Below, piece by piece: positions 1 through 18,967 of a stretch of DNA of 32,000 nt (the first letter of the stretch is position 1; every line of letters begins with the position of its first letter). The DNA comes from Candidatus Hermodarchaeota archaeon (GTDB lineage: Archaea; Asgardarchaeota; Heimdallarchaeia; Hodarchaeales; Hodarchaeaceae), in NCBI GenBank assembly GCA_048886185.1, contig JBHLKY010000030.1, positions 9,139 to 41,138 of the forward strand. The letters are read 5' to 3'. A program made the translations under genes and the position numbers. A model generated the notes under the pieces. That model was given only the letters and a program-made list of their open reading frames with translations, ran no database searches and had not been told where the DNA came from.

Positions 1-192
1 TGAATCAGGAATCGGAATGGAACCGTGTAAGCGATAATGTTGCTTTTCTGCAACAGTTCCTGCTCCCATGGAGAGAATTGTCATTCCGATAACACTTAAT
101 TTTACAGTGGTATCCTCTGATATTGGGGACAAATTCAAGAGTGGAAATGGTCCCATATCGGTCATTGTGGTTACAATGAGTCCAGAAATCAT
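1..192 (-). CDS. Longin-like protein, 5' part only (runs off the left edge; absent from the ORF track)
   Basis: Manual translation from ATG at 192 (AGGAG at 206-202, in-frame TAA just upstream) is open to base 1: MISGLIVTTMTDMGPFPLLNLSPISEDTTVKLSVIGMTILSMGAGTVAEKQHYRLHGSIPIPDS. The N-terminal strand followed by D-x-G-P-x-P resembles the start of longin/uDENN domains. It begins 20 nt after the stop of the 213..1169 gene. Confidence 0.6.
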   Translation of the reverse strand, partial: MISGLIVTTMTDMGPFPLLNLSPISEDTTVKLSVIGMTILSMGAGTVAEKQHYRLHGSIPIPDS

Positions 193-212
193 CCATTTTT
201 ACTCCTTTGCAT

Positions 213-1169
213 CTAGTTCGCCTTATATTTCAGCAAAGATGTTATTTCAGTTGATATTTCAAGACATACTTGTTCAATAGTAGAATAAGATTCAGAATTT
301 AATCTGAATGTCGATTCTATTCCAATTAATACTAATTTTGTTCCAATATTAACAAGTTGAGTAATCATTAAAAAGTCTTCAATTCGAAGAACATTTGTTT
401 TTGCCTCGGGGGCTATATCAAAAGCCTCATATTGGTCTAGCATCTTGATAATTTGAGGTCCGACTTTCTCTTGCCAACTTTGGTTTTTTCCTATTGCTAA
501 AAGAATCTTATGGCTTGGAGACAATAAAAAAGCTCCAGCGATGCCATATGTCTTCATTTTCTCTTCTAGTCTTTCTTTAATTCGACGTTTATTTACCAGA
601 TCTAGATTTAGTTGTGCTTCCAAAGGTCTATCTTGGGAGAATTTACTAAAATCAGCAGCTTTATTTATTATCTGAGTAAAGATTAGGTTGGTTAATCGTT
701 GTTCATCAGGCCCTTTCAATGAAACAATATAAGATGGGATTTCATTAGGAAAGAATTGTTGAAAGTTTTTGATGACTGTGTCTTTTATTTTGTTTCTTTC
801 AACCTCACTAGTTATTAAATGTCCACGGTTTAGTAAAAGAACAACTCGAAAATTTTTGTTTACACTACTAATATCTGCAGTTATCCTTTGAAAATCCGAT
901 GAGATCTCATCTAAAAGTTGATAGGAGATATCGTGTATGTAAATAAGCGTGTTTATTTTCATTAAGATCTTTTCACGAATAGAAGGAAGTAAGCTAGTAA
1001 TATAAGTCTCTTCTTTCTTTGAATGAGAGGGATTTAACCAATCATAGTAAAAAACGTTCTGTAATATCTTAAGATTTGGTTCTGTCCGTCCTAACTTCAT
1101 CATTTGGCTAAAAAGTAGGTCTTTTCCAGAATGAGATAACCCGGATAATGCGATGAGGTTTTGACGCAA
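213..1169 (-). CDS. Degenerate (pseudo) Rag-like small GTPase with C-terminal roadblock-like domain
   Basis: G1 GLSHSGKD; no DxxG (G3); G4 position NRGH; strand LIYIHDIS aligns with LVFICDIA of the neighbouring Rag. The C-terminal ~125 aa (helix, GIAGAFLLSPSHKILLA, strands, helix) has a roadblock pattern. TTG start with GAGGAG at 1180-1175. Confidence 0.7.
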   Translation of the reverse strand: MRQNLIALSGLSHSGKDLLFSQMMKLGRTEPNLKILQNVFYYDWLNPSHSKKEETYITSLLPSIREKILMKINTLIYIHDISYQLLDEISSDFQRITADISSVNKNFRVVLLLNRGHLITSEVERNKIKDTVIKNFQQFFPNEIPSYIVSLKGPDEQRLTNLIFTQIINKAADFSKFSQDRPLEAQLNLDLVNKRRIKERLEEKMKTYGIAGAFLLSPSHKILLAIGKNQSWQEKVGPQIIKMLDQYEAFDIAPEAKTNVLRIEDFLMITQLVNIGTKLVLIGIESTFRLNSESYSTIEQVCLEISTEITSLLKYKAN

Positions 1170-1179
1170 TGTGACTCCT

Positions 1180-2184: not shown

Positions 2185-2267
2185 GGCATCGTCCTCTCGA
2201 GATCTAACACCTAGAATTATCTACACAAGTTCAAGTGTAAAGTTTTAAGATTCATCAAATAAATCTT

Positions 2268-2275
2268 TTTATATA
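2268..2275. promoter_or_regulatory. Candidate archaeal TATA box (TTTATATA) in the divergent intergenic region
   Basis: TTTATATA at 2268-2275 between divergent genes starting at 2184 and 2380. The background is AT-rich, so support is weak. Confidence 0.3.
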
Positions 2276-2379
2276 ATTCTGTGTTATTAAAGGTATTAAC
2301 CATTAAATAAAAAAAAACTATTGGTTCGCGTGAAAATAAGGCGTTTCTTTTTTGATTCTAATGTTGGAGCGTTAATCTC

Positions 2380-2727
2380 TTGCAACAACGCAAACCGCCC
2401 GATATTTTGTGTGAGATCACATGTAGATCTTTTCGATGCAGTGAAAAACTCTTGTCGATTACATATAGTCGTGGTGAGAAGAAGATAATGTGCAGAATGA
2501 TTGAAGGCGACGAATGTATCGGTTATAAATGTAAGTTTGCTGTTTGTTTTGTTCGGCCTTCAGCTTTGGATGTTTCAACAGGTTCTTGTTCTCAAAAGCT
2601 GAAACGTCAGAGACCTCGACACACTCAAAAAGCTAGTAGTAAAGATACTTTTGACGATCCCTTGAAATATAAAAATCTACTTGACAAAAAGTTAAGAAAA
2701 AATTTCAAGCTCAAAGATTACTATTAG
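2380..2727 (+). CDS. Small Cys-rich putative metal-binding protein with basic tail
   Basis: Eight Cys (CEITCRSFRC, CRMIEGDECIGYKCKFAVC, GSC) and a Lys/Arg-rich C-terminal half. TTG start with GGAG about 10 nt upstream. Confidence 0.7.
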   Translation: MQQRKPPDILCEITCRSFRCSEKLLSITYSRGEKKIMCRMIEGDECIGYKCKFAVCFVRPSALDVSTGSCSQKLKRQRPRHTQKASSKDTFDDPLKYKNLLDKKLRKNFKLKDYY

Positions 2728-2790
2728 GATCTTTTCAGTAAGTAGATCTCTTTCTGTGTAATACTTTTCAATTTTACAAAGAGAGATTGA

Positions 2791-4272
2791 TTAAACTAGC
2801 TTGTGTGTGAAATGGTAAAATCCACTCGTTTCATATAGAAATAGGACTATGATGACTATAGCAATCAAGCTGAGTCCAAAACAGAAAGTAAAAAGACCAA
2901 TAATTCCTTCTGGGCCAAGGCCAACAAAATATCCTCCTATAATAGCGCCCATAATATTTCCCATAGCCATGAGTGATTGGGTAAAGCCCATCTCACGTCC
3001 CCGTTGCCCTGATTTGGTTACATCACTAACTAAACCAAGAGCAGCTGAAATAAAACAAGAAGCGGAGAGACCGTAAATGATAATCATTAAGACAACAAAG
3101 ATGTGAGGGATCGGGAGTGGATTTTCAGGGATAAGATTCAAGGAAATTGTATCTGTTAATGAGAATGGATTTTTTATCAGATTAGACAATTCAGAAAGTT
3201 CCCATACTTGATTTCCATTTACGGATTCATAATCAAGAATGGATGCAAGTGTTATTAACAACATACTGGTACCAATAACTCCAATTACCAAGAAGGGTTT
3301 TCGTCCTACGTTATCAGAAAGTTTACCTAATACTGGTTGCATTATTCCCATTATACAAATCGCAAGAAAGCCAATTACCGCAATAGCGGGTCCTACCTCT
3401 ATAACGAGGTCGAATATAATAGTAGGTGCTACAAAAGTGCTTGCTCCTATGAGTGTTGTATAAGCTAACCATGCAATGGCGAATTTACGAAACTGTTTGT
3501 CTTGAAGACTTTCTAGCATAGTTTTAAACGGATTTATATCAATCTCTGAATCCGTTACAGTTTGAGTGAAATCTGTTAGCATTATATCAGCTTCATCATG
3601 TGAGACTATATCTGTATGGGGTTCAAAGAACCTAAACACATAAATTGAAGTAGCCAAGAACATTATGATTGCAAAGAAGAAGAATGAGTCCTCTTTTAAA
3701 ATCGCCCATGCGAATAAAGCAAATGGATTCCCAATAGCTCCTCCAGCAGCTTTTGCTAAGTAGAATTTCCCCATTGTTTCACCATGCTTTTCTTCTGGGG
3801 ATAAATCTGCAATTACCGCTAATATGGGTCCAGAGATCATCGCAGCAGCTAACCCTTTCAACCCGTTCGAAAGGACTAGAACTAGAAAACTAAATGGTAG
3901 AGTCGCATAGTAAGGATACATAATGGGAAAAATAATAAAGGAAATACCTGCTAATGCTGTTCCAATGATTAAAAATGGTCGTCGTCCAAAACGATCGCTA
4001 ATTAATCCGAAAAATGACGCAGTTGATAATGAAACGATGTAGTAACTGGCTACAATTATTGCGGTTTCGATACCCACCGTACTCGTTCCACTTTGTTCTC
4101 CTAATTCCCGGAGGTATAGGGGTAAACTAAATCCTGCAGAAGCAAATGCACATTCCGTCACAGCCACTGCAATATAAAGAATCATACTTTGCTTCTTTAG
4201 CAAAAAGGTGATGGGTTGGCCAATGAAATGCAAGGTTTCCTTTGTATATTTTGATATTGTAAGGCGTGGCAC
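2791..4272 (-). CDS. Major facilitator superfamily transporter
   Basis: About 12 hydrophobic segments. MFS motif A occurs twice (GLISDRFGRR, GKLSDNVGRK), with repeated ADLSPEEKHGETMG / SDVTKSGQRGREMG loops. Substrate unknown. Confidence 0.92.
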   Translation of the reverse strand: MPRLTISKYTKETLHFIGQPITFLLKKQSMILYIAVAVTECAFASAGFSLPLYLRELGEQSGTSTVGIETAIIVASYYIVSLSTASFFGLISDRFGRRPFLIIGTALAGISFIIFPIMYPYYATLPFSFLVLVLSNGLKGLAAAMISGPILAVIADLSPEEKHGETMGKFYLAKAAGGAIGNPFALFAWAILKEDSFFFFAIIMFLATSIYVFRFFEPHTDIVSHDEADIMLTDFTQTVTDSEIDINPFKTMLESLQDKQFRKFAIAWLAYTTLIGASTFVAPTIIFDLVIEVGPAIAVIGFLAICIMGIMQPVLGKLSDNVGRKPFLVIGVIGTSMLLITLASILDYESVNGNQVWELSELSNLIKNPFSLTDTISLNLIPENPLPIPHIFVVLMIIIYGLSASCFISAALGLVSDVTKSGQRGREMGFTQSLMAMGNIMGAIIGGYFVGLGPEGIIGLFTFCFGLSLIAIVIIVLFLYETSGFYHFTHKLV

Positions 4273-4526
4273 AGCTCTCTTTTCCTTTATGAGGTATTTG
4301 ATTCTGATTAGCCTATTAAGTCAATGTATTGGTTTCGTGAACTTAATATTATCTTCTTCTTGCTTGTTTTATTAAGTTTGCATTACACTTCATAATACAG
4401 TTAAATTTTATCAAAATAAGGAAAATTTAAAATTCTTTGTACCTTAAAGAAAGCAAACGATCTTATTATCCAAATTTTCGCCAAAAAAGTATTAATCATG
4501 TTAATTTTCAAATTGAGGAGTTAAAC

Positions 4527-5429
4527 ATGAAAATTTCACTTGTTGGACTTAGTGGTTGCGGTAAAACATCAATCTATTTCACTACATTGGGTGGGATGGC
4601 TCCTATGGAGACCAGTGATTTCGGGCCGACCATTATGTATGAGGTGAAGTCCCATAATTACTTGGGTCTTCAAATATCCCTGTGGGACTTCGGAGGGCAA
4701 GAAAAATATAGGCAATCGTACCTCGAGACACCTAAACTTCTCGCTAACACCACGGTGTTGGTTTTAGTCCTTGATCTCCATCATCCTGAGGATTTTAAGA
4801 AAGCAGACGATTACTTTAGGCAGGTTTATTCCGCTATTAAAGAAAATGGAGGAGATCCTCGTTTAATAATTTTCTTTCATAAATATGATACAGAGCAATA
4901 TCTTAAGGAACAGCTTGAAGAGAATCTCGACAAAGCTAGAGAATTACCATTTGTCCGAGAACTTAATCCTGAATCCTTTGTTACATCTATTTATAGACAA
5001 GAGGAATTAAGTGAGGTTTTTCGTCAAATCTTGATTTCAGACTTTGATAAATTAAAAAATAGCGTTGAACACGCTCAAAACCAACTCATGAAGCTGAATT
5101 CAAAGATCATTGTGAGTGATGTGAATGGAAATGTTATTACTCATAGTATCAAGGGTTTTTCAACGGGAATCCAGCTTCGTGAAGATTTGCGTGATTATAT
5201 TCTTTCCTGTAATGTATTACGTGAAAATTTCCTCACAAGTGATTCAGCTTCTTTTTCTGCCATTTCTGATTCAAAGACATTAGAATTGCATATTTTTAAT
5301 TTTGTTCTAGCTGTACTCATTATGGTAGATAAAGGGGTAAAAGTTGATCCCCCTGAAGATATCGAAGCTTTGCTAAAAGATATGAAAGTGTTTGCAGAAT
5401 TAATCATTGAAGCTAGTAGAGAAGATTAA
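4527..5429 (+). CDS. Second Rag/Gtr-family small GTPase with C-terminal roadblock-like domain
   Basis: G1 GLSGCGKTS, G2 GPTI, G3 WDFGGQ, G4 HKYD, G5 TSIY, plus C-terminal IIVSDVNGNVI roadblock-like strands. Start moved from the track's 4437 to ATG 4527, which has GAGGAG at 4515-4520 and lies directly before the P-loop strand. Confidence 0.9.
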   Translation: MKISLVGLSGCGKTSIYFTTLGGMAPMETSDFGPTIMYEVKSHNYLGLQISLWDFGGQEKYRQSYLETPKLLANTTVLVLVLDLHHPEDFKKADDYFRQVYSAIKENGGDPRLIIFFHKYDTEQYLKEQLEENLDKARELPFVRELNPESFVTSIYRQEELSEVFRQILISDFDKLKNSVEHAQNQLMKLNSKIIVSDVNGNVITHSIKGFSTGIQLREDLRDYILSCNVLRENFLTSDSASFSAISDSKTLELHIFNFVLAVLIMVDKGVKVDPPEDIEALLKDMKVFAELIIEASRED

Positions 5430-5796
5430 ACGTCTAAGAATCGTTATTCAGTTATATTTCTAATTATCCCAGAAACTCACCTTTTTTCCTCAAGATTTCG
5501 CTTTTTTTGTTTGTAAGGCTCGATTCAATTTTAGATCTTGGATTACTTAACTTATGAGGTTAAAAAGCACCTGAATACTCTAAATAAGAGACATTTTATT
5601 GTTTGTACCTATTTTATGATAATTTAACTTTAAATCACTTGTAGAATAAATTTTTTAATTTATGTCAAGAAAGTAAGTCAAAATTTTCTTTTATTATCTT
5701 CTAAGCATCAAAGATTTCAAGGTTTGAAAAACTCACGAGGTTTTCCATAGAATTCTTAAAATCCCCCCGAAAATCATTTATTGGAGGCATTTCTAA

Positions 5797-6282
5797 TTGA
5801 TTGTTGAAGAAATAGGGAATACAACCCTTCAAAAGATATTTACATCAAAAAAGAGGAGTCGAAGTAGCTTAATCCCAATTTTACAAGACATACAAAGTGA
5901 ATTTGGGTATTTATCTAAAGAAAACATGATTCATATTGGGGAATATATTGGAATGTCATTTAACGAAGTTTATGGGGTTGCTTCATTCTATAAACAATTC
6001 AAATTTGTTAAATCTGGAAAACATATAATAACTGTATGTTTAGGAACAGCTTGCTTTGTAAAGGGCGGTCAAATACTCGCTGAAACTGTAAGAACAAAAT
6101 TAGGTATTAATCCAGATGAAACTACAGAGGATAGGTTATTTAGTTTTGAACGTGTTGCTTGTTTAGGATGTTGTGCCTTATCTCCAGTTGTTCAAATTGA
6201 TGGGGAAGTTTATGGAGAAATGAAACCAGCAAAATTACTTCGAATTATCAATAACATAATTAGGGAAGAAAATAATAAGTAG
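5797..6282 (+). CDS. nuoE: NuoE/HydC-family [2Fe-2S] subunit
   Basis: LIPILQDIQ, EVYGVASFY, CLGTAC and CLGCCALSP motifs. TTG start with GGAGG upstream. Confidence 0.93.
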   Translation: MIVEEIGNTTLQKIFTSKKRSRSSLIPILQDIQSEFGYLSKENMIHIGEYIGMSFNEVYGVASFYKQFKFVKSGKHIITVCLGTACFVKGGQILAETVRTKLGINPDETTEDRLFSFERVACLGCCALSPVVQIDGEVYGEMKPAKLLRIINNIIREENNK

Positions 6283-6293
6283 GTAACTGGATA

Positions 6294-8120
6294 ATGACCA
6301 AAAAAAATTCTTCTCTTAGAACAGTTCTAATTTGCCAAGGAACAGGATGTATCTCATCAAAATCAAATGAGATTAAAGAGGAATTTGAAGAACAGATAAT
6401 TGCGGAGGGTCTAGAAAATGAGGTGAAAGTAGACTTCACTGGTTGTCATGGATTCTGTGCTCAAGGTCCTATTGTGATAATTGAACCAGATGGAATTTTG
6501 TATTGTAAGATTAAAGTGGTAAATGTCAAAAACATTGTTACTTCACATTTGAAAAACATCCGGCCTGTTGAAGAATACTTTTACACCGATCCTAAATCTG
6601 GAAGGAGAATATCAAAGTATAAAGATATTCCTTTTTATAGTAAACAGACACGAATGATTTTAGGTAACTGCGGACACATTAATCCTGAAAATATTGACGA
6701 TTATTTGCACATTGGTGGTTATTCAGGACTTAAACGAGCATTGAAAACCTCTCCCGAAGAGGTTATTCAAATTATTAAAAATTCTGGTTTACGTGGGAGA
6801 GGAGGCGCAGGTTTCCCAACTGGCATGAAATGGGAATTCTGTCGTAATGCACCTGGAAACGAGAAATACATTATTTGTAATGCAGATGAAGGAGATCCTG
6901 GAGCTTTTATGGATCGTTCAATACTTGAAGCAGATCCACACAGCGTTTTAGAAGGAATGATTATCGGAGCATATGCCATTGGCGCTTCTAAAGGCATTAT
7001 CTATGTTCGTGCTGAATATCCTTTAGCAGTTAAGCGTTTTAGATTTGCTCTTGAAACAGCAAGAAAAAATGGATTTCTTGGAGAAAATATTCTAAATAAT
7101 GGATTTTCATTCGATATTTCCGTTCATGAAGGTGCAGGCGCTTTTGTTTGTGGCGAAGAGACAGCATTGATGGCCTCAATAGAAGGAAACAGAGGTAATC
7201 CACGACCTAGGCCACCATTTCCAGCAGAGTCTGGCCTTTGGGGTAAACCCACCAATATCAATAATGTAAAGACATGGGCTTCTACTGCGTGGATTTTTAA
7301 AAATAGTTGGGAGAAGTTTCACGCTATTGGTGTTGAACATGCACCTGGTACAGCGATTTTCTCACTAACAGGGAAAGTTAAGAATTTGGGCTTAATAGAA
7401 GTACCTATGGGTATCAGTATAAGAGAAATCGTCTATGAAATAGGTGGTGGTATTTTAGATGATAAGGAATTTAAAGCTGTTCAGACTGGAGGTCCTTCAG
7501 GTGGATGTTTACCAAAAAGTCATTTAGACTCCCCTGTTGATTATGAAAGCATGGCTACTTCTGGTAGTATTATGGGTTCAGGTGGAATGATTGTTCTTGA
7601 TGAAACTGATTGTATGGTAAAATTAGCTCATTATTTCATAACATTTACACAAGCTGAGTCTTGTGGGAAATGTGTCCCCTGTCGGATCGGAACAAGAGCA
7701 ATGTTGGTTATTCTAGATCGGATTATAAAAGGAGAGGGTGAAGACCGAGACCTCATGCTTTTAGAAGAATTAGCCAATACGGTAAAAATGGGATCATTAT
7801 GTGGGCTTGGCCAAACCGCACCAAATCCCGTATTAACTACATTGAAATATTTTCGTAATGAGTATCAGACCCATATTTTTGAAAAACGTTGTCCTGCTAA
7901 AGATTGTCAAGATCTGATTGAATACGTAATTGATGAAGCTATTTGTAATGGATGTACATTATGTGCCCGCAACTGCCCAATGAAGGTCATCACAGGGATT
8001 AAAGGAGCTACTCACATGATTGATACAAATAGGTGCATTAGATGTGGTATCTGTTTCAAAAGTTGTCCTAGAAACGCAGTGTACAAAAGGGATCGGTATC
8101 CTCAGCAGGTGAAAAGATGA
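6294..8120 (+). CDS. nuoF: NuoF/HydB-family FMN/NADH-binding subunit, long (bifurcating-type) architecture
   Basis: N-terminal [2Fe-2S] domain (CQGTGC, CHGFC); GLRGRGGAGFPTG; NADEGDPGAFMDR; GAGAFVCGEETAL; SCGKCVPCRIG/CGLG; HIFEKRCPAKDC; two C-terminal CxxCxxCxxxC motifs. Confidence 0.95.
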   Translation: MTKKNSSLRTVLICQGTGCISSKSNEIKEEFEEQIIAEGLENEVKVDFTGCHGFCAQGPIVIIEPDGILYCKIKVVNVKNIVTSHLKNIRPVEEYFYTDPKSGRRISKYKDIPFYSKQTRMILGNCGHINPENIDDYLHIGGYSGLKRALKTSPEEVIQIIKNSGLRGRGGAGFPTGMKWEFCRNAPGNEKYIICNADEGDPGAFMDRSILEADPHSVLEGMIIGAYAIGASKGIIYVRAEYPLAVKRFRFALETARKNGFLGENILNNGFSFDISVHEGAGAFVCGEETALMASIEGNRGNPRPRPPFPAESGLWGKPTNINNVKTWASTAWIFKNSWEKFHAIGVEHAPGTAIFSLTGKVKNLGLIEVPMGISIREIVYEIGGGILDDKEFKAVQTGGPSGGCLPKSHLDSPVDYESMATSGSIMGSGGMIVLDETDCMVKLAHYFITFTQAESCGKCVPCRIGTRAMLVILDRIIKGEGEDRDLMLLEELANTVKMGSLCGLGQTAPNPVLTTLKYFRNEYQTHIFEKRCPAKDCQDLIEYVIDEAICNGCTLCARNCPMKVITGIKGATHMIDTNRCIRCGICFKSCPRNAVYKRDRYPQQVKR

Positions 8121-9727: not shown

Positions 9728-10601
9728 TATCGTTAAAAAATATGAATGTGTTCCAAACATCCATAAGTTAATCATCTCAGTACCAGAAATAGCTAAAAAG
9801 GCCCAACCAGGGCAATTCGTACTCGTAATGGTAGATGAGAAATCTGAGAGAATTCCATTAACAATTGCTGATTGGGATGTGACTACAGGAACTATTACAT
9901 TATTTGTTCAAGAAGTTGGATTGTCTACAACAAAATTTGCTTTTATGGAAGAAGGAGATTCATTTTTTAGTATTGTGGGCCCCTTAGGAAAACCTGCCTA
10001 CCTGGATAAATTTGGAACTGTAGTATTGGGAGGTGGTTGTTTTGGGATTGGAGCTATCTATTCAATAGCTAAAAAGCTCAAGAAATTGGAAAATTACGTT
10101 ATCACTATAATTGAGGCAAGAAATGACTGGCTTTTGTATTTTGAGGATGAATTTCAATCTATAAGTGATGAAGTTATCGTGACAACTAGTGATGGGTCAA
10201 AAGGATCAAAAGGGTATATCTATGATGTTCTTGACAATATGATTACAGAAGGACGGGAAATTGATCATATAAAAGTTATTGGATGTAATGTCATGATGAG
10301 TAAGGTTTCAGCCCTCACTAAAGAAAAAGGTTCCATTCCAACCTATGCAACTGTCTCAGCAATTATGGTGGATGGTACTGGGATGTGTGGAGCTTGTCGT
10401 TTGACATATGATGGAAAAACAAAATTTGCATGCGTGGATGGCCCAGAGTTCAATGCACACAAAATTGATTGGGAGGAACTAATACAAATCCGAAATACAA
10501 CTTATATTCAGGAGGAAACCCTTGCTTTCCAAACTCATTCCCCACAATGTCTATCTCTAAAGAGATTTGCAGAAATAAAAGATGAAGAGGAATTATTTTG
10601 A
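9705..10601 (+). CDS. nfnA: Nfn small subunit (NfnA/SudB, PyrK-like FAD/[2Fe-2S] protein)
   Basis: AQPGQFV, ERIPLTIAD, GPLGKP, MVDGTGMCGACR, CVDGPEF. The true start may be TTG 9714, with GGTGA 5' of it. Confidence 0.93.
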   Translation: MSSLSIYNIVKKYECVPNIHKLIISVPEIAKKAQPGQFVLVMVDEKSERIPLTIADWDVTTGTITLFVQEVGLSTTKFAFMEEGDSFFSIVGPLGKPAYLDKFGTVVLGGGCFGIGAIYSIAKKLKKLENYVITIIEARNDWLLYFEDEFQSISDEVIVTTSDGSKGSKGYIYDVLDNMITEGREIDHIKVIGCNVMMSKVSALTKEKGSIPTYATVSAIMVDGTGMCGACRLTYDGKTKFACVDGPEFNAHKIDWEELIQIRNTTYIQEETLAFQTHSPQCLSLKRFAEIKDEEELF

Positions 10602-12331
10602 AGGCAAAGGAAAGAATGCAAATTTCTAGGGTGTCTATGCCAAGTCAACCTCCAGAGGTACGTGTTAAGAACTTCCGTGAGGTTCCTTATGGTTACACAG
10701 AAGAAATGGCTGTAGAAGAAGCCAACCGTTGTCTTGGATGTAAAACACCAAAATGTATCGAGGGGTGTCCTGTTCGTGTACCAATTCCAGAGTTTATCAC
10801 ATTAATACAAGAAAGAAAGTTTGCAGAAGCAGCATGGAAAATTAAAGAAACAAATGTCCTCCCAGCAATATGTGGACGTGTATGTCCTCAAGAGGCACAA
10901 TGTGAGGGAAAGTGTGTTCGTACGAAAAAGGGCGAATCTGTTGCTGTTGGTAACCTTGAACGATTTGTTGCTGATTATGAACGGTTAAAAGATATTGTTC
11001 CTAAAATAAATATCGTGCAAAAAAATGGGAAAAAAGTGGCAGTTATAGGGAGTGGTCCCTCGGGGTTGACTGTTGCAGGAGATTTAATAAAATTAGGATA
11101 TGAGGTAATCATTTTTGAAGCGTTTCACCTTGGTGGTGGCGTTCTTGTTTATGGAATTCCGGAATTTCGTTTACCTAAAGCAGTTGTGGAATATGAGATA
11201 CAGAATCTTAGCAAACTAGGAGTACAAATCTCTTATAATCATGTAGTTGGCCGTATTAAAACCATTGGGGAACTATTTGCTAATGATGATTTTGATGCTG
11301 TTTATATTGGTGTTGGAGCTGGTTTACCAGTTTTTATGAATATTCCAGGGGAAAACCTTATTGGGGTCTATTCTGCCAATGAATATCTTACACGCTCAAA
11401 TTTAATGAAATCATATCTTTTCCCCGAGTATAATACTCCTTTAGTAAGTGGAAAAGATGTTGTGGTCGTGGGTGGAGGGAATACTGCAATGGATGCTTCT
11501 AGAACCGCTATACGATTAGGGGCAGCTAATGTTTACCTTGTCTATCGTCGCTCAAGAGAACAGATGCCTGCGCGAACATTGGAGGTACATCACGCTGAAG
11601 AAGAGGGAATTCAATTCAAACTTTTATCTAATCCTGTTGAGATCATTGGTGACGAAAAAGGTCGAGTTAAAGCAGTTACTTGTCAAAGATATCGTCTTGG
11701 AGAACCAGATAAATCTGGAAGAGCTCGTCCTATACCAATAGAAGGTGAGTTCTTTGAGCTAAAAACTGATTTAGTCATTATAGCTGTCGGAACGGGGGCG
11801 AATCCTCTAATCACAGCCACAACACCAGATCTAGAAACTAATAAGTGGGGGTATCTCGTAGCAGACGAGATGGGCCGTACTAGTAAACCATTTGTATATG
11901 CAGGTGGCGACATTGTTACAGGAACAGCAACTGTAATTTCAGCAATGGGGGCGGGTCGTCGAGCAGCTCAAGCAATACATGAGGATCTCTTTCCAGTGGT
12001 CAAGGAAGAACCCGAAAGAATTCGAATAGTTTCCGAGATTATACAAGTAAAAGAAGCCATAATACATCCTGAATCTACAACAATGAAAATTATATTAGCC
12101 AATACATCAGGAAGAGATCTCAAGAATCTAAAAATTGTTGTTTCACATCTCTTTGATTTGTTTGAAGAACCCTTATTTAATACATCTGTCTCAAGCTGGC
12201 CATCAAATGAAGAGCTGGAACTTGATTGTCCCCGAATTCATAAAAATGAAAAAGAATATCTTTTATCCATAAGAGATTTAGACAGAAAATTGTTATCAAA
12301 GCGACTTGTTGCTGAAGAACTAATGAAGTAA
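10598..12331 (+). CDS. nfnB: Nfn large subunit (NfnB/SudA, GltD-like) with an extra ~110 aa C-terminal domain
   Basis: CLGCKTPKCIEGCPV, CGRVCPQEAQCEGKC, GSGPSGL, YGIPEFRLP, GGGNTAMD, YRRS, YAGGDIVTG. The core ends near AAQAIHEDL (~11990) and is followed by the extension. TTGA overlap with nfnA. Confidence 0.93.
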   Translation: MKAKERMQISRVSMPSQPPEVRVKNFREVPYGYTEEMAVEEANRCLGCKTPKCIEGCPVRVPIPEFITLIQERKFAEAAWKIKETNVLPAICGRVCPQEAQCEGKCVRTKKGESVAVGNLERFVADYERLKDIVPKINIVQKNGKKVAVIGSGPSGLTVAGDLIKLGYEVIIFEAFHLGGGVLVYGIPEFRLPKAVVEYEIQNLSKLGVQISYNHVVGRIKTIGELFANDDFDAVYIGVGAGLPVFMNIPGENLIGVYSANEYLTRSNLMKSYLFPEYNTPLVSGKDVVVVGGGNTAMDASRTAIRLGAANVYLVYRRSREQMPARTLEVHHAEEEGIQFKLLSNPVEIIGDEKGRVKAVTCQRYRLGEPDKSGRARPIPIEGEFFELKTDLVIIAVGTGANPLITATTPDLETNKWGYLVADEMGRTSKPFVYAGGDIVTGTATVISAMGAGRRAAQAIHEDLFPVVKEEPERIRIVSEIIQVKEAIIHPESTTMKIILANTSGRDLKNLKIVVSHLFDLFEEPLFNTSVSSWPSNEELELDCPRIHKNEKEYLLSIRDLDRKLLSKRLVAEELMK

Positions 12332-12454
12332 GTAATACAAGTTGGTTATTAGTGGTTATAAGGGAAACTGTTTAGAGACAACCGATGACTTTAATTTATT
12401 TTGATCTTTTTTGCCACTTATAGATAGAATGTTTGAATCATTTATTTTAGTTAC

Positions 12455-12874
12455 TTAATCTTCTTTTGATTTTAGTGAGAGGGATTCTAAGGAGTTGAAA
12501 GCGGCTAAAATATCGTAGGATGTTATTATCCCTACCAAATTATTGCTAACGGGATTTATTACAGGAATTCTTTTTATTCTATATTTAGACATTAGCTTTA
12601 ACGCGTCTTTAACGGTTTCTTCTGAAGAAATTGTAATAAGGTTTTTTGTTGCAATGTCCCCTGCTTTGACTGTACAAGGATCATTACAATTTAGCACAAC
12701 TCTTGCGATAATATTTTGTTTTGTTATTATTCCAAGATTTTTTTGATCTTTATAAACCAACACTGAACCTACTTTTTTTTCGACCATTAATTGAGCTACC
12801 TTCTCAACACTTTCATTGGGATTAACAGCTACAATCTCTTTCGTCATAAAATCTTTTACTTTAGTTCTATTCAC
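12455..12874 (-). CDS. Stand-alone CBS-pair protein
   Basis: VKDFMTKEIVAVNP..SVEKVAQLM..VGSVLV..GIIT and AGDIATKNLITI..ALKLM..IKRIPVI..GIITSYDI. GTG start 11 nt after the upstream stop. Confidence 0.92.
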   Translation of the reverse strand: MNRTKVKDFMTKEIVAVNPNESVEKVAQLMVEKKVGSVLVYKDQKNLGIITKQNIIARVVLNCNDPCTVKAGDIATKNLITISSEETVKDALKLMSKYRIKRIPVINPVSNNLVGIITSYDILAAFNSLESLSLKSKED

Positions 12875-12885
12875 GACATAACTTC

Positions 12886-13914
12886 CTATCCTTGAATTCT
12901 TTTTAGCATTATTGTTTCATTTTCGTCTTCAATTTTAAGGAAATAGATCATACCAGTTCCTTCAGAGGGTTCAAATTCAAAGGAAATGATTTCTTTTGGG
13001 GCCCATTTTCTTATTTCTGAAATAAGGACATCTTTTCCGAAAAATCCATGTGATTCATATATTTTGAGAAGAACATTTTCTAAAATGGTTGAACTAATGT
13101 TACGAACTGTGATACGAATGATTTTTTTGTCTTTAGGGGATTCAACTTGAATAATTTTTACACGTTTTGGTTCTGGTTTTAAGATTTCCTCTTTTTTACT
13201 ATCTGAAATCTCCTGTTGTTTTATTGTAGGTATTAAAAATCTTAATTTTTCTGGCCTTTTAGGTACTGAAGGGATACTAGGTTTCTGAAATTGATAGCTT
13301 TCTGAATTTGGTTTTTGCTCCAGTTCATTTTCTTTTAATTGTGCTTTAAGCTTTGTAATGGGGATTTTCGGAATTAAAGAATGATATTTACTCTCAAGGA
13401 GTTCTCTGATGTGTTTAGACCTTTCTATGACTTCTGGCTCTTTACTTTCCTCAAGTATATCTTCAATGAGGAAACGCAATCTTAAACTGACGTGATAATT
13501 TTCGAGGGTTATTTTAAATTGGTACAATATTTCCTGAGCGATAAAAGAAACCGATGAAGGGGCCTTGACGATCAAAATAAATCTATCAAGTTGCCATTTG
13601 GCAGATTCCATTCCTGAGCGTCTTTTAATTCTACGTGTTTCACAAAAAGATATTGTAGCACAGTAAATAACATCTCCTATCTCAAGATCGATGCTGGTAA
13701 ACTTATCTGTATCTAGGAATTTTTCCTGGTGCCACCATACTGGATGAATGGATAATATTTGTTTTTCATTTTCATCGGTCAATAATTCTTCTGGATATCC
13801 AAATAGTGGGACATGGCCTCTAATTTCGTCAAAAAAATAGAGAAAGAATCCATACGAATTGTCGCTGGCTAAAGAAACAATATTTTTTGTTGAGGGGATA
13901 TCCCCGTTACTCAT
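12886..13914 (-). CDS. Longin/uDENN-like protein 1 with C-terminal shared domain
   Basis: N-terminal GFFLYFFDEIRGHVPLFGYP fits the uDENN/longin start pattern (FDxxxG..YP). A Pro/Lys/Glu-rich linker precedes a C-terminal beta-rich domain. Paralogous to 14394..15341. Confidence 0.7.
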   Translation of the reverse strand: MSNGDIPSTKNIVSLASDNSYGFFLYFFDEIRGHVPLFGYPEELLTDENEKQILSIHPVWWHQEKFLDTDKFTSIDLEIGDVIYCATISFCETRRIKRRSGMESAKWQLDRFILIVKAPSSVSFIAQEILYQFKITLENYHVSLRLRFLIEDILEESKEPEVIERSKHIRELLESKYHSLIPKIPITKLKAQLKENELEQKPNSESYQFQKPSIPSVPKRPEKLRFLIPTIKQQEISDSKKEEILKPEPKRVKIIQVESPKDKKIIRITVRNISSTILENVLLKIYESHGFFGKDVLISEIRKWAPKEIISFEFEPSEGTGMIYFLKIEDENETIMLKRIQG

Positions 13915-13947
13915 GACTACGCCTTTCTCCTTTATTCTAAAATCTAA

Positions 13948-14151
13948 TCAATCTAAGCTGATTTTAAAGGATTTCTCTCTATTTATCACATTTACACAAA
14001 ATTTCGATTTTAATCTTTTTTGTTTTTCATGAGAGATTATGGAGAAATCATCCGACAATAATATGGGAGTTAATGAAAAAGGGATCTGATGACAATAATC
14101 AGGTAAGATTGACAATAAAAGCTCTTTTATTTGCTTATTGTCTAAAATCAA
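13948..14151 (-). CDS. Possible small hypothetical protein (67 aa)
   Basis: ORF on the same strand between the two longin-like genes, ending 33 nt before the next start. No motif and no convincing SD. Confidence 0.3.
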   Translation of the reverse strand: MILDNKQIKELLLSILPDYCHQIPFSLTPILLSDDFSIISHEKQKRLKSKFCVNVINREKSFKISLD

Positions 14152-14393
14152 CCCCTTTTTTAATCCTTTTCTACATAAAAGGCATATAATGATTTAATAG
14201 TCTTCTATAATGCTAGAGAAATATTTTTCATTTCTTCAGAGTAAAATTACGACAAAAAGGGGTAACCTCTTTACTCTATTAAACGTTTTTTCAAACAATT
14301 TCTAGTATCATATCTTGATCATTAAAGGAACTTCAAACAATGCAAAGAATATAAATTTCTAAAGATGATTTTATCATTGGAGATATACTTAAA

Positions 14394-15341
14394 TTAACTA
14401 GCATTAGTAGAAGCAATCTCAAGGGACTTTATGTCTATTGTTGTATTTCTACTAGTAATCTTTATCAAATACTTCCCAATTACGTCAGATTTGGAAAATT
14501 CTAGGATTATATCTTCTTTTAAAGGCCATTCTTCAAGTTTATGCTCCCAAATAGTTTCACTAAAAAACTCTGTTCTTCTTGACACATGAATCCTTATATC
14601 ATATAAATTTTCACTCTGATTAATTAATACTACCATTAATCTATTCTTATTTTCCTCTGTTGGTAAGACTCTCATGGTTATTTTTTGCTTAAACAAATCC
14701 TGAGCACAAAGACTTGTCTCTACTGGAATCATGGAGGAATTGACTCGACTTGGTATTATCTCTGTGCTAAAAGGCTCTATATTTTTATTAATTCCATAAA
14801 CAAATTTTTTCCAAATATTTTTAAGGGACAATTCGATTTCTACGGCTTTTTTTAGTAATTCATCGTGTTCTCGTTTTTTGATCGGATTTAATGCCAATTT
14901 TTCTCGTTGATATAATATCTCAAGATCTGAACCAATATCCGAATTTATTGTTGTTTTTAAATCAACAAATGCTTTAACGGGTATAGGATCACTATCTTTC
15001 CATTTTTTGATGACGATTCCATAGAGAGGGTGATCAATTGTTGACAACGATCCCTCTTGGGAATCTTCTTGAAGCTGAATAGCTGAGTAAACAAATTCTG
15101 AAAATTTTAAATCAATTCGAAAAGGAACATTTTCAATTTTCCACACACAATGAGTTTTTAGAATATTAATTTCATTTTGATTTTTTTTCAATTTTGATGG
15201 GTATGAAAAGAGGATACGAAGGCCATGAGTAGTATCAAAAGAACACAAAAAAAATCCTATTAGGCCAACTTTTGAGTCAAAAGTTTGCTTATCGGTTGCA
15301 GGTTCAATATCAGTATCAAATACGGGATCGATATTCATCAT
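14394..15341 (-). CDS. Longin/uDENN-like protein 2 with C-terminal shared domain
   Basis: GFFLCSFDTTHGLRILFSYP..NE..IL..H.VW..IDL..Y.A aligns with protein 1, and the C-terminal domain is also homologous. AGGAG upstream of the ATG. Confidence 0.7.
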   Translation of the reverse strand: MMNIDPVFDTDIEPATDKQTFDSKVGLIGFFLCSFDTTHGLRILFSYPSKLKKNQNEINILKTHCVWKIENVPFRIDLKFSEFVYSAIQLQEDSQEGSLSTIDHPLYGIVIKKWKDSDPIPVKAFVDLKTTINSDIGSDLEILYQREKLALNPIKKREHDELLKKAVEIELSLKNIWKKFVYGINKNIEPFSTEIIPSRVNSSMIPVETSLCAQDLFKQKITMRVLPTEENKNRLMVVLINQSENLYDIRIHVSRRTEFFSETIWEHKLEEWPLKEDIILEFSKSDVIGKYLIKITSRNTTIDIKSLEIASTNAS

Positions 15342-15704
15342 TTCTCCTTATGTTTCTAATTTATTGAAAAGAAATAATCCTTTTGAAATAGTTTACTCTC
15401 GTAAGTGTTAAACCTTTTCCACTTCAAAAGTTTTATTAAATAGTTTAAAAGCATGTTTAATAACGTAACAAGATTTTTAGTGACCATCTGATATTTTTAA
15501 TGTGGTTTTACAGCTCAACTATAGAAAAATCTATTTAATTATCGATAAAAACCTACTATTGTAGCATAGTAACACTATTTTTCCCCAAAACTACTACAGA
15601 AAATCCATTATCCTATGAAACAAAATTTTTTAGTATATTCTCATTTACTCACATCAGTAGAAACAATTCATCAAATAACTTTGGAACGTTTGGAGAAGAA
15701 CATT

Positions 15705-17534
15705 TTGAGTACACAAGTGTGGGATCTCATTGTAGTGGGAGGTGGGCCTGCTGGTCTTTCTGGTGCTATTCGTGCTGCAGAATTAGGCCTTCATGTCCTT
15801 GTCCTCGAGGCACGTTCTGGAGTCGCTACCGCAGGTAGTATGGTTGTGGATGGGTATCCTGGCTTTTTTAGTATTACTCGCCAAGAACTACTAGATAAGA
15901 TGGCTAAACAGGCGAAATATCATGCGACCATTAAGTATGCAGAGAAAGTTAGTAAACTTGAACTTCACGATCCTGTAAAAAGAGTTTACACACAGGTGAC
16001 CAAAGGAGAGTTCTTCACCGAAGAGTTCATATATGACAGTAGGGCTATATTAATCGCTACTGGGGTTCAACCAAGGAAACTTGATATTCCCGGTGAAGGA
16101 AAATTCTGGAATCGTGGTGTATATTACTCTCTTCCAGACGAAGATTACTCGGAAAAAAATGTTGCTATTATAGGGCATACAGCTTGGGCGGTTAGAAATG
16201 CACTTCATTATGATGCCATGGGCGCTCATGTTTACCTGATTACAAATAAGGAGGCAATTGATGTTCATCCTGCACTCATGAGAAGATTAAATGAGAGCTT
16301 TATTGAAGTTTTATACTCACATGAAATATTGTATTTTGAAGGTACAAATAAGTTAACTAAAACACGTCTTAAAAGTAGAGATGGAAAACAGTTTTCTATC
16401 CTTACTAACATGGTATTGATCTTAAGTAGCAAGAGTACAAATCGTGAATTATTCCTAGATGCTGGTTTAGAGACTACACCTCAAGGAAATATTATTGTTT
16501 CATCACCCAATCAGAACACAAATATCCCTGGTGTTTTTGCTGCCGGTAGTGCTATAAGAGGTGATTCAGTTGTGGGTGTGGGGGCTGCTGAAGGTATAAA
16601 AGCTGCAGAAGAAATATCTAAATATTTAGCTAGAATAGATGAAGAAAAGGAGGCTGAAGAACAACAAGAAAAGCCATCTCCTGTTCCTAGGTTCGTTGAA
16701 GGCAAATGTGTGATAGTTGAGAAAGAAGATCTTTCTCCAGAAATAGTCAAGTGGGTAGTTGAGGCACCTTTAATTGCAAAGAAAACTCAACCAGGCCAAT
16801 TTGTGATTCTCAGAGTAGATGCAAACGGAGAACGAATTCCTTTAACTATAGCAGATAATGACAAAAACGCTGGGACGATAACTTTGATTTTTCAAAAAGT
16901 CGGAAAAAGTACTAAATTAATGGGAACCATGAAAACAGGTGATCATATTCTTAATCTTCTAGGTCCCTTGGGAAAACCCGTTGAAATTGAGAAATGGGGT
17001 ACGGTGGCTGTTTTAGGTGGTGGTTGTGGTGTTGCCCCAGTACTACCTAAAGCTAAAGCACTTAAAGAGCGGGGGAATTATGTTGTGAGCATTATTTCAG
17101 CTAGAACTTCATCACTCTTGATTTGTCGTCAAGAGATGCAAGAAGCAAGTGATGAAATTCACATTGCTACTGATGATGGAACCTTAGGTCATCATGGGTT
17201 TGGACTTGATATCTTAAAACGTTTTGTGGAAGAAGGAAGACAGATAGATCATGTTGTAGCAGTTGGTCCTATTCCTATGATGAAATTCACTTGTGCTTTC
17301 ACTAAAGAACATAACATTCCAACAACTGTTAGTTTAGCACCTATCATGGTAGATGGGACTGGAATGTGTGGCTCTTGTCGCGTGACTGTGGGTGGTGAGA
17401 TTAAGTTTGCCTGTGTTGATGGTCCAAACTTTGATGGATTAAAAGTGGATTTTGAAGAATTAACCCTCAGATCAAGGGCTTATCTCTACGAGGAGCGAAT
17501 TTCAACAGAAAAAATGGCTCGTGAGAAATCTTAG
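15705..17534 (+). CDS. Fusion of a thioredoxin-reductase-like flavoprotein domain (no CxxC) and an Nfn small subunit
   Basis: N-half: DLIVVGGGPAG, ILIATG, IPGE..RGVYY, TNIPGVFAAG. Acidic linker EEKEAEEQQEKPSP. C-half: QPGQFV, ERIPLTIAD, GPLGKP, GGGCGVAP, MVDGTGMCGSCR, CVDGP. Start moved from 15615 to TTG 15705 (GGAG at 15692-15695). Confidence 0.9.
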   Translation: MSTQVWDLIVVGGGPAGLSGAIRAAELGLHVLVLEARSGVATAGSMVVDGYPGFFSITRQELLDKMAKQAKYHATIKYAEKVSKLELHDPVKRVYTQVTKGEFFTEEFIYDSRAILIATGVQPRKLDIPGEGKFWNRGVYYSLPDEDYSEKNVAIIGHTAWAVRNALHYDAMGAHVYLITNKEAIDVHPALMRRLNESFIEVLYSHEILYFEGTNKLTKTRLKSRDGKQFSILTNMVLILSSKSTNRELFLDAGLETTPQGNIIVSSPNQNTNIPGVFAAGSAIRGDSVVGVGAAEGIKAAEEISKYLARIDEEKEAEEQQEKPSPVPRFVEGKCVIVEKEDLSPEIVKWVVEAPLIAKKTQPGQFVILRVDANGERIPLTIADNDKNAGTITLIFQKVGKSTKLMGTMKTGDHILNLLGPLGKPVEIEKWGTVAVLGGGCGVAPVLPKAKALKERGNYVVSIISARTSSLLICRQEMQEASDEIHIATDDGTLGHHGFGLDILKRFVEEGRQIDHVVAVGPIPMMKFTCAFTKEHNIPTTVSLAPIMVDGTGMCGSCRVTVGGEIKFACVDGPNFDGLKVDFEELTLRSRAYLYEERISTEKMAREKS

Positions 17535-17548
17535 GAGGAACTAGAAAT

Positions 17549-18967
17549 ATGTCAACAAAAAAATCAAAAAGACAAAGAGTTCACATGCAAGCCCAAGACC
17601 CTGCCGAGCGAATTCGAAACTTTGAAGAGGTAACTTTAGGGTACACAGAGAGTGAGGCGATAGAGGAAGCTTCTCGCTGTCTCCAGTGTAAACGCCCACG
17701 CTGTATCCAAGGATGCCCTGTTAGTGTGCGAATACCCGAGTTCATTTTAAAGTTAAGGGAGGGTGATATTGATACGGCAAAAGAAATAATTTTATCTACA
17801 AATAGTCTACCTGCCATCACGGGACGAGTTTGTCCGCAAGAAAATCAATGTCAGGAGTTCTGCATTCACCCTAATGCAATAAGTATCGGTGCACTCGAAA
17901 GATTTGTTGCTGATCATGGAAAACGACCTGAAGTCTCCTCTCGTGAGAAATATCCAACTAAGGTTGCAGTAGTTGGATCTGGTCCATCGGGATTGACTTG
18001 TGCAGCTGAGTTAGCAAATCTTGGTCATGAAGTAACCGTTTATGAGGCACTACATGAGCTTGGTGGAGTTCTGAGATATGGTATTCCTGAATTTAGAATG
18101 CCAAAGAAGATAGTGAATGAAGAAATAGATTATGTAAGAAGCTTAGGAGTTAAATTAGATACAGATATATTGATTGGAAAGACATTAACAGTCGATGAGC
18201 TTCTAAATGAAAAAGGATTCAATGCTGTATATATTGCAGCGGGTGCAGGAACCCCCAACTTTCTTGGTATCCTAGGGGAGACCTTAAGAGGTGTTTTTTC
18301 CGCAAATGAATTTTTAACTCGCGTTAATCTTCTAAAAGGGTATGAATTTCCAGAATATGACACTCCTGTAACTGTTGGAGAAAAAGTTGCTGTCGTTGGG
18401 GCAGGAAACGTAGCAATGGACTGTGCGCGAACAGCACTCCGTTTAGGAGCTCGTGAAGTCGATATTATTTATCGTCGCTCTGAAGGGGAAATACCCGCAA
18501 GATTAGAAGAAATTATCCACGCGAAAGAAGAGGGAGTTGTCATAGGGGAGCTAACATCTCCGATTGAAATGCTTGGTAATAAAAAAGGAATGATAATTGG
18601 ACTAAAGTGTATTCAAATGACTTTAGGACAATTGGATGAGTCTGGTCGTCGAAGACCAATCCCCATCCCTAACTCCGATTTTATTTTCCCTGTGGATACT
18701 GTGATAGTAGCCATTGGTCAGCGACCCAACCAGTTAATAGCTCAAACCACTTCAGAGCTAGAAACTACAAAATGGGGAACTATTGTACATGAAAAAGAAA
18801 CAGGAAAGACTACTAAGGAACGTGTATATACTGGAGGCGATGTTGCTACTGGAGCAGCAACTGTTATTTTAGCTATGGAAGCTGGTCGAAATGCTGCTAA
18901 AGCAATTCATAAGATGATTCTTGAGAAAGATTTGGAAATTCAAACTGAGTTAATACAAACCGAATAA
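17549..18967 (+). CDS. nfnB: Second Nfn large subunit (NfnB/SudA, GltD-like), standard length
   Basis: CLQCKRPRCIQGCPV, GRVCPQENQCQEFC, GSGPSGL, YGIPEFRMP, GAGNVAMD, YRRS, YTGGDVATG. GGAGG upstream. Confidence 0.93.
   Translation: MSTKKSKRQRVHMQAQDPAERIRNFEEVTLGYTESEAIEEASRCLQCKRPRCIQGCPVSVRIPEFILKLREGDIDTAKEIILSTNSLPAITGRVCPQENQCQEFCIHPNAISIGALERFVADHGKRPEVSSREKYPTKVAVVGSGPSGLTCAAELANLGHEVTVYEALHELGGVLRYGIPEFRMPKKIVNEEIDYVRSLGVKLDTDILIGKTLTVDELLNEKGFNAVYIAAGAGTPNFLGILGETLRGVFSANEFLTRVNLLKGYEFPEYDTPVTVGEKVAVVGAGNVAMDCARTALRLGAREVDIIYRRSEGEIPARLEEIIHAKEEGVVIGELTSPIEMLGNKKGMIIGLKCIQMTLGQLDESGRRRPIPIPNSDFIFPVDTVIVAIGQRPNQLIAQTTSELETTKWGTIVHEKETGKTTKERVYTGGDVATGAATVILAMEAGRNAAKAIHKMILEKDLEIQTELIQTE

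Follow-up and report, generated by a model that had tools for sequence, protein, structure and literature searches.

A 32,000-nucleotide stretch of DNA from a Candidatus Hermodarchaeota archaeon (GenBank assembly GCA_048886185.1, contig JBHLKY010000030.1, positions 9,139 to 41,138), hereafter the window, contains a cluster of Rag-type GTPase, longin and oxidoreductase genes and was subject to comparative sequence and structure analysis. The window constitutes the right-hand 32 kb of a 41-kb contig, C30, in a genome of 4.84 Mb that is 96% complete and carries 11,666 open reading frames (ORFs). An atlas search assigned it to the phylum Promethearchaeota (Asgard), and the sequencing runs found for positions 4400-14000 are of DNA from sediment and estuary metagenomes. 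A gene map was built from the ORF listing together with Pfam and NCBIfam scans, and comparisons were made across 301 Asgard genomes, which were grouped in families (f1, f2 and so on) and coded with G-numbers. The cluster comprises two units. Module B contains the GTPase Rag2, the longin proteins LonA and LonB with a shared C-terminal domain (CTD), a CBS-pair protein and a CTD-bearing redox enzyme, and is, as judged from gene comparisons, conserved far beyond chance. Module A is a predicted operon separate from module B, and contains Rag1, a pseudo-Rag, the longin-gelsolin protein Lon264 and Rag3. An earlier note on this DNA had listed two Rag-like GTPases, a pseudo-Rag, a CBS pair, a transporter and two Nfn systems, and all of these are found in the sequence. 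Its three longin-like proteins can be recognized as LonA, LonB and Lon264, the last with only its first 64 codons in the window, whereas the ORF at 2380-2727 is not a longin; and its first Nfn system is present as NfnA1 and NfnB1 and proves to be the tail of a five-gene operon starting with NuoE/F/G-like genes.

Gene content of the Rag2 module

Rag2 (positions 4527-5429, + strand), the hub of module B, is a Rag-type GTPase with a putative C-terminal roadblock-like part (Pfam, 1.4e-20). Its ORF opens at a TTG codon at 4437 (ORF 4437-5429), but orthologues begin at the position of the ATG at 4527, which is the likely start. The first three genes of the redox operon (5797-9727, +) encode a NuoE-like protein, a NuoF-like protein with flavin mononucleotide (FMN) and iron-sulfur (FeS) sites, and a truncated NuoG/FdhA-like protein. 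The last of these (8117-9727, +) has only 536 amino acids; it includes the FeS domains of the N-terminus and the beginning of the molybdopterin domain, without the full catalytic part. NfnA1 (9705-10601, +) is a sulfide/dihydroorotate dehydrogenase-like FAD/NAD-binding subunit that scores 339.5 bits against NCBIfam PRK06222 (cut-off 220 bits), and NfnB1 (10598-12331, +), which ends the operon, is a GltD/NfnB-type flavo-FeS subunit of 577 amino acids that scores 590.3 bits against TIGR01316 (cut-off 471.75 bits) and carries a C-terminal CTD. The NfnAB arrangement of adjacent NfnA-like (FAD/NAD/2Fe-2S) and NfnB-like (GltD-type) genes is found in this pair and in the second Nfn pair of the window.

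The remaining members lie on the opposite strand. In LonA (12886-13914, -), a longin domain at about residues 19-119 is joined to the CTD by helices and a disordered linker. Directly downstream of LonA is the CBS-pair gene (12455-12874, -), which encodes 139 amino acids with two tandem domains (Pfam CBS, 2.6e-30). LonB (14394-15341, -) is a paralogue of LonA without its Arg-rich loop.

A C-terminal domain shared by a redox enzyme and two longins

In an AlphaFold2 model of LonA, the CTD is an immunoglobulin (Ig)-like beta-sandwich of roughly 100 amino acids and seven strands. Copies are located at NfnB1 residues 476-576 (12023-12325, +; profile E 5e-22), LonA residues 246-342 (nucleotides 12889-13179) and LonB residues 215-313 (nucleotides 14403-14699), and the CTD regions of the window proteins have no Pfam match. 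Pairwise BLASTP of the NfnB1 tail gives weak but significant matches to LonA and LonB (E 2e-4 and 1e-3), and a profile built from the three copies retrieves exactly three of the 11,666 ORFs of the genome, NfnB1, LonA and LonB (E 5e-22 to 4e-31), all within 4.7 kb. The proposal in the earlier note that an Nfn system shares a domain with the longin proteins is thereby confirmed.

Searched against 1.84 billion representative proteins, the CTD profile matches only 120 clusters. Nearly all belong to three kinds of protein in which the CTD is always C-terminal: FrhB-type proteins of about 500 amino acids, longins of 310-360 amino acids and arrestin-like proteins of 375-406 amino acids. The far tail of the matches contains multi-Ig proteins with Cep192_D4/ASH/CARDB domains (E 6e-12 to 2.5e-5). 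The label arrestin-like is a lead only, taken from sequence character, a weak Arrestin_C match and atlas scores of 0.87. Polar and aromatic positions (N, F-F-E and W-x-P-x-E) are conserved in all three carrier classes, suggesting that the CTDs may bind a common ligand, for which Rag2 is the obvious candidate.

Co-inheritance, adjacency and replacement across Asgard genomes

The CTD is present in 103 of the 301 Asgard genomes, mostly in three copies per genome. Rag2 orthologues, defined by a threshold of E<=1e-45 and exhibiting 43-51% identity, are present in seven CTD families (f1, f12, f14, f22, f23, f29 and f30), and none was found at this threshold in the other 22 families of the sample. 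Adjacency was counted in the 34 genomes outside the genus that have comparable coordinates. All 34 have a CTD-bearing gene either directly next to Rag2 or no more than about 2 kb from it, and this gene encodes FrhB-CTD in 33 and the arrestin-like CTD protein in one (G240, where the arrestin-like CTD gene is the only one seen beside Rag2 on a 6-kb contig). FrhB-CTD adjoins Rag2 in 31 genomes and sits 1.3-2 kb away in G083 and G025, with the arrestin-like CTD gene in between in G025. The arrestin-like CTD gene is usually next, 0-7 kb away, and the LonA-like and CBS genes are usually within about 15 kb, with distances of up to about 60 kb or a position on another contig in some f14 genomes.

The CBS gene adjoins LonA-like genes in f1, f12, f23 and f30, and all six genes form one string in G297 (CBS, LonA-CTD, CBS, FrhB-CTD, Rag2, arrestin-CTD). 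A representative protein, P0029, is a fusion of a full LonA-CTD to four CBS domains (hhalign probability 100, E 1e-41). Gene orders and strands vary among f1, f12/f23, f14, f22 and f30, indicating that module B is not one frozen island. Synteny comparison within the genus found the whole 30 kb to be collinear in most congeners, and this collinearity carries no information on functional linkage.

Within the genus, the redox locus that separates Rag2 from the CBS gene takes two forms: NuoEFG-NfnA1-NfnB1-CTD in nine genomes, of which this is one, and FrhB-CTD, a single FrhB/FdhB-family flavo-FeS protein of roughly 491 amino acids with the same CTD, in another nine. No FrhB-CTD was found in this genome. 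Conversely, the Nfn1 operon is absent from the three FrhB-type congeners searched for it, in which the only NfnB homologue matches core residues only. Exactly one CTD-bearing redox enzyme is thus left in each of these genomes. LonB, in turn, occupies in this genus the place of the arrestin-like CTD protein of other families, and the combination of NfnB for FrhB and a second longin for the arrestin-like protein is, on present gene comparisons, specific to this genus. That the CTD was retained when NfnB took the place of FrhB hints strongly that the module needs the domain and not a particular enzyme.

On a phylogenetic tree built from 91 CTDs, those of NfnB group in a single clade that lies among the FrhB- and arrestin-type CTDs (support 90/85), apart from the longin CTDs; the tree does not settle the sister group of the NfnB CTDs or which locus type is ancestral within the genus. 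That the NfnB CTD was left over at this site from a displaced FrhB gene was considered and is unlikely as a simple event, given that the CTD-coding end faces in opposite directions in the two locus types.

Two congeners, G102 and G280, encode a CTD (G102:C4:41206-41508 and G280:C46:10527-10829) in an ORF of roughly 508 amino acids, for which FrhB identity is presumed from size. Neither a Rag2 orthologue nor a full LonA or LonB was found in these genomes at the thresholds used, and the pattern looks like a reduced module B.

The GTPase and longin families

Rag1, Rag2 and Rag3 score 123.8, 74.2 and 118.9 bits, respectively, against Pfam Gtr1_RagA (gathering cut-off 22 bits), and their orthologues keep GxxxxGK[ST] (G1), DxGGQ (G3) and the Rag-typical HKxD G4 motif as HKTD or HKYD. 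The motifs read GLSGCGKTS, DFGGQ and HKYD in Rag2 and GLSQAGKT, DLGGQ and HKTD in Rag1. A sequence alignment places Rag2 along RagA residues 7-264, extending into the C-terminal domain, and the alignment of Rag2 orthologues (A3) has a mean column identity of 66%. Among solved structures, the three GTPases are closest in sequence to yeast Gtr1, human RagA and two Rag-like GTPases of Lokiarchaeota. The top PDB sequence matches of Rag2 are 8zla/9m28 and 8yl2, and a literature search found no relevant paper for PDB 8ZLA, 8YL2 or 9M28. One congener possesses a second Rag2-like paralogue with 58% identity (G256:C1:1525212-1526135), with no CTD gene within 9 kb.

LonA, LonB and Lon264 have no Pfam match at E<=1. 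The AlphaFold2 model of LonA, built with 28 homologues (predicted local distance difference test, pLDDT, 75.7), has a longin core of beta-beta-alpha-beta-beta-beta-alpha topology at residues 19-119, from which four helices and a disordered linker lead to a sandwich of seven strands (residues 252-341). A Foldseek search of this model against the PDB returned generic Ig-like matches to the CTD only and was of no help on the N-terminal domain. The best VIA-align match is GATOR1 8fw5_B (Z 10.3, root-mean-square deviation 3.5 over 137 residues), with 6nzd_H at Z 9.2 and near-ties with 8fw5_B from Sec22, BLOC-3, CPLANE, the SEA complex, VAMP7 and the FLCN complex. LonA is thus certainly a longin by its modelled fold, the matches to which do not fix the longin subclass. 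LonA orthologues, distant ones included, keep an R-x-K-R-R-S-G loop (RRxKRRSG in alignment A1), which LonB lacks. The Gly before strand 2, which belongs to an R-G-H motif in LonA, is invariant in the orthologues and is followed by His in the genus and by Gln in f14; LonB has G-L at this position.

Proposed function of module B

The reading favoured here, for which the balance of probability is roughly even, is that the cluster holds two separable Rag units and that module B is a conserved functional module with CTD docking, longin action on Rag2, and coupling to CBS and redox partners. The observed gene content, folds, shared domain, co-inheritance, adjacency, fusion and replacement are consistent with a mechanism of which binding through the CTD, a longin action like that of a GTPase-activating protein (GAP) and the direction of signalling are the conjectural parts. 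The CTD would serve as a docking 'ear' through which its three carriers either meet on a shared partner, Rag2 being the likeliest, or bind one another. By analogy with FLCN/NPRL2-type longins, the nucleotide cycle of Rag2 would be the target of LonA, probably in a pair with LonB, the CBS pair would bind adenine nucleotides and so provide an adenine-nucleotide input, and the oxidoreductase would tie the Rag2 switch to the pool of ferredoxin and NAD(P)H. An ancestral FrhB-CTD may, in this genus, have been replaced by the NuoEFG-NfnAB operon, with NfnB taking over the CTD, and the arrestin-like CTD protein may have been replaced by a second longin, LonB.

Several observations weigh against this reading. 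The CTD has a generic Ig-like fold, the nearest structures to which are PDE-delta, Fn3-like domains of glycosidases (GH3) and HAP2 D3, and Foldseek matches to the CTD also include archaeal pilins. The fold matches of the LonA longin domain lie within about one Z unit of each other over GAP and non-GAP longins, and LonA has G-H before strand 2 where GAP longins have G-P. In f18, the sole family of this kind, a CTD-bearing FrhB-type gene occurs without a Rag2 orthologue at E<=1e-45, and G102 and G280 within the genus likewise carry a CTD-bearing, presumed FrhB-type gene with no Rag2 orthologue at that threshold and no full LonA, which indicates that the enzyme can exist without the switch. The sampled families are few and related, and the co-occurrence counts consequently overstate independence. 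A predicted complex of Rag2 with the NfnB1 CTD lends the reading weak support: it attains an interface score (ipSAE) of 0.44 against 0.00 for the best control, with three runs agreeing in at least 89% of contacts and a partner pLDDT of at least 75. This prediction sits in the weak band. In calibration, the mark was reached by 58 of the 80 solved complexes and by 2 of the 110 mismatched pairs, and at scores of 0.60 or below only 7 of the 80 solved complexes pass, as do both of the passing mismatches.

Redox sensing by module B is plausible, and the GTPase could equally control the enzyme. This reversal of direction is a tentative alternative, under which the Rag2/longin/CBS switch would recruit, assemble or gate the oxidoreductase at a membrane or cytoskeletal site, and the energy state read by the CBS pair would set the amount of active bifurcating or F420-type enzyme. 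A redox partner that can be swapped between FrhB and NfnB with the CTD kept resembles cargo bearing an address tag, and arrestin-like and longin proteins are typically adaptors. The reversal also fits the neighbouring Rag operon, which ties a longin to a gelsolin domain and hence to actin, and the genomes that keep FrhB-CTD without Rag2. However, no membrane anchor or targeting signal is seen on the module members, and the sequence data do not separate input from output.

It is also conceivable, though unlikely, that the nutrient-sensing hub around Rag had an archaeal forerunner in module B. Redox and energy state would then be what is sensed, with the enzyme, a longin GAP pair and an adaptor docked via the CTD on a Rag GTPase and the CBS protein reporting adenylate charge, and redox sensing would have preceded amino-acid sensing.

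The adjacent Rag operon and other genes of the window

Module A extends across the left edge of the window. Rag1 (1180-2184, -) is an intact Gtr1/RagA-type GTPase (Pfam Gtr1_RagA, 9.5e-36), and the pseudo-Rag (213-1169, -) is a Rag-like protein with degenerate G1, G3 and G4 motifs (Pfam Gtr1_RagA, 1.6e-4). Lon264 (1-192, -, in the window; full gene C30 8536-9330) has 264 amino acids, and Rag3 (C30 7592-8521), an intact Rag-type GTPase, lies left of the window beyond Lon264. A 183-residue protein of no known family (contig positions 6922-7473, -) is encoded after Rag3 in every congener examined, possibly as the fifth member of the Rag1 operon. In the pseudo-Rag the lysine of the P-loop is preserved, but the motifs read GKD in the P-loop, HDISYQ for DxxGQ and NRGH for HKxD; these degenerate motifs are identical across nine species, and the protein is thus a maintained pseudo-GTPase.

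The AlphaFold2 model of Lon264 (pLDDT 80.9) consists of a longin domain followed by a C-terminal half that is a gelsolin domain, with Thorarchaeota ProGel as the top match (Z 10.9). The N-terminal domain matches the Loki longin 8yqg (Z 12.9), C9orf72-SMCR8 (11.7), Lst4 (11.4), the FLCN complex (10.0) and GATOR1 (9.9), and reaches Z 8.1 at most against adaptin, VAMP7 and TRAPP longins. Within its family, D-x-G-P is invariant in 13 sequences, as are R85 and R91. A G-P motif before strand 2 together with an Arg characterizes the GAP class of longins and its Asgard look-alikes (PMC12290439), and Lon264 resembles these in its GP motif and conserved Arg. No DENN (or NPRL2-specific) domain was found behind the longin of LonA, where helices, a linker and the Ig-like sandwich follow, or of Lon264, where the gelsolin domain follows. 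By modelled fold, the evidence supports a resemblance of the longins of this locus to the FLCN/SMCR8/NPRL2 class. Lon264 is an FLCN/SMCR8-like GP-motif longin joined to a gelsolin domain, encoded inside an operon of Rag-type GTPases, and this fusion suggests a link of a Rag-type switch with actin. Two of the six occurrences of Lon264-type longins in this genome adjoin Rag-type genes, and module A accordingly has the look of an independent functional unit, in which Rag-type GTPases would be paired with a GP-motif longin.

Three further loci lie in the first 19 kb. The small protein encoded at 2380-2727 (+), divergent from Rag1, has 115 amino acids and no Pfam match, and exhibits 51-70% identity over its full length in six congeners (tblastn). 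Its candidacy as a third longin was rejected; it is a conserved small Cys-rich, very basic protein and may bind zinc or nucleic acid. An MFS transporter (2791-4272, -; Pfam MFS_1, 2.4e-38) is a neighbour within the genus only. A fusion of a thioredoxin reductase (TrxR)-like protein to NfnA2, followed by NfnB2 (together 15615-18967, +), is divergent from LonB, carries no CTD and is a lineage-specific neighbour; NfnA2 scores 391.1 bits against PRK06222 and NfnB2 548.4 bits against TIGR01316. The fusion gene (15615-17534, +) lacks the redox-active CxxC in its TrxR-like half, with GVYYSLPD where thioredoxin reductases have CATC, and this feature is conserved in the genus. The remainder of the window (19074-32000) is collinear in the genus and bears no relation to the Rag/CTD finding; it encodes an HTH_34 regulator, a Memo-like protein, a PfkB kinase, an AAA_33/KTI12-like kinase, an adenine deaminase, an XPD-like helicase and several unnamed ORFs.

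The earlier note had read the whole 19 kb as one integrated circuit resembling the Rag pathway, which would join both Rag operons, the MFS transporter and both Nfn systems. A gene order kept over about 30 kb in most congeners speaks for such a circuit, as do the divergent promoters that separate Rag1 from the small Cys-rich ORF and LonB from TrxR-NfnA2, but the circuit is highly improbable. The collinearity is limited to one genus and is uninformative. The Lon264 family is present in f1-f4, f6, f7, f9 and f22 and was not found in f12, f14 and f23, a range nearly the reverse of that of Rag2 and the CTD. In the congener G241, some 800 kb separate the module A operon from the Rag2 module, and LonB has no Nfn2 next to it. 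Only within the genus is module B accompanied by the MFS transporter and the TrxR-NfnA2/NfnB2 genes, which are not near it in other families. The caution in that note that the abundance of small GTPase genes makes proximity weak evidence was well placed: the genome holds 11 strong Gtr1/RagA-type genes, three of which are clustered with the pseudo-Rag within 7 kb here, and about 25 other small GTPases. What stands of the proposed Rag-pathway-like cluster is the link that co-occurrence, adjacency, fusion and CTD-keeping replacement establish among Rag2, the two longins LonA and LonB, the CBS protein and a flavo-FeS oxidoreductase.

The least probable reading is that no functional link exists, the CTD being a generic stabilizing or oligomerizing Ig domain and the clustering a product of shared ancestry or gene-island transfer; the generic fold and a patchy distribution that hints at island transfer (present in f1, not found in its sister families f2-f7) point this way, but the members remain together across families despite being rearranged, fused and partly replaced, the CTD is retained through non-orthologous replacement of its carrier, and each genome has exactly one CTD-bearing redox enzyme.

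Relation to known systems and significance

Rag/Gtr GTPases are obligate dimers through their C-terminal domains and bind Ragulator/EGO and TORC1. Module B and module A resemble the eukaryotic Rag/Gtr GTPases and their longin GAP complexes (GATOR1 NPRL2-NPRL3; FLCN-FNIP/Lst7-Lst4; C9orf72-SMCR8) in possessing Rag-type GTPases that carry the HKxD G4 motif and a putative roadblock-like C-terminal part, partner longins whose folds are closest to or tied with NPRL2, FLCN, SMCR8 and Lst4, and a paralogous longin pair with an Arg-rich loop in one member only. Unlike the eukaryotic complexes, the longins are followed by an Ig-like CTD or a gelsolin domain instead of DENN, LonA has GH for GP, no Ragulator-like anchor was identified, and the flavo-FeS oxidoreductase and CBS partners have no counterpart in the eukaryotic hub. 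A TOR kinase is likewise missing: no PI3K/TOR-type kinase was found above cut-off in the window, as the earlier note had stated, or in the whole genome, in agreement with Liu et al. (10.1101/2020.10.19.343400).

The NfnB1 form of module B shares with the FrhB-CTD form of f12, f14, f22, f23, f29 and f30 an orthologous Rag2, the CTD, a LonA-like longin, a CBS neighbour and three CTD carriers per genome. It differs in having NfnB, at the end of the NuoEFG-NfnAB operon, for FrhB and LonB for the arrestin-like carrier, and in that Rag2 is not co-directional with the longin genes. As putative NfnAB/Stn-type electron-bifurcating NAD(P)H-ferredoxin oxidoreductases, both Nfn pairs have both subunits above the curated cut-offs, and NuoE/F/G-like (HydBC-like) genes precede NfnA1; NfnB1 is unlike these enzymes in its roughly 100-residue C-terminal Ig-like extension, which NfnB2 lacks.

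Rag-like GTPases, longins and proteins resembling NPRL2 or FLCN are already known from Asgard archaea, most such genes reportedly lying outside conserved neighbourhoods, and the Asgard structures 8yl2 (LokiRagO), 9m28 (LokiRagM) and 8yqg (Loki roadblock-longin) represent the same protein families (Tran et al. 2024, PMC10933270). Small GTPase genes of MK-D1 are generally not in operons with roadblock or longin genes, and cognate pairs are therefore unreadable from that genome (PMC10933270). In contrast, two GTPase/longin arrangements are present here, one of which is conserved across families. The GTPase partner of FLCN/SMCR8-like GP-motif Asgard longins is a question posed in PMC12290439. A literature search found no paper on the redox-enzyme link or the shared CTD, nor on an Asgard arrestin/small GTPase/F420 neighbourhood.

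The window adds to this picture the NfnB/second-longin variant of module B and an adjacent longin-gelsolin Rag operon. Asgard genomes encode dozens of small GTPases and longin or roadblock proteins, among which this locus offers two concrete candidate pairings: a GP-motif longin-gelsolin protein within an operon of Rag-type GTPases, and Rag2, inherited together with a pair of longins, a CBS protein and a redox enzyme, all tied together by a private domain. The locus thus supplies a set of partners that can be tested for an archaeal counterpart related to the nutrient switch of eukaryotes. If the proposed binding and regulation are true, a eukaryote-type switch would be linked to energy metabolism in the closest archaeal relatives of eukaryotes.

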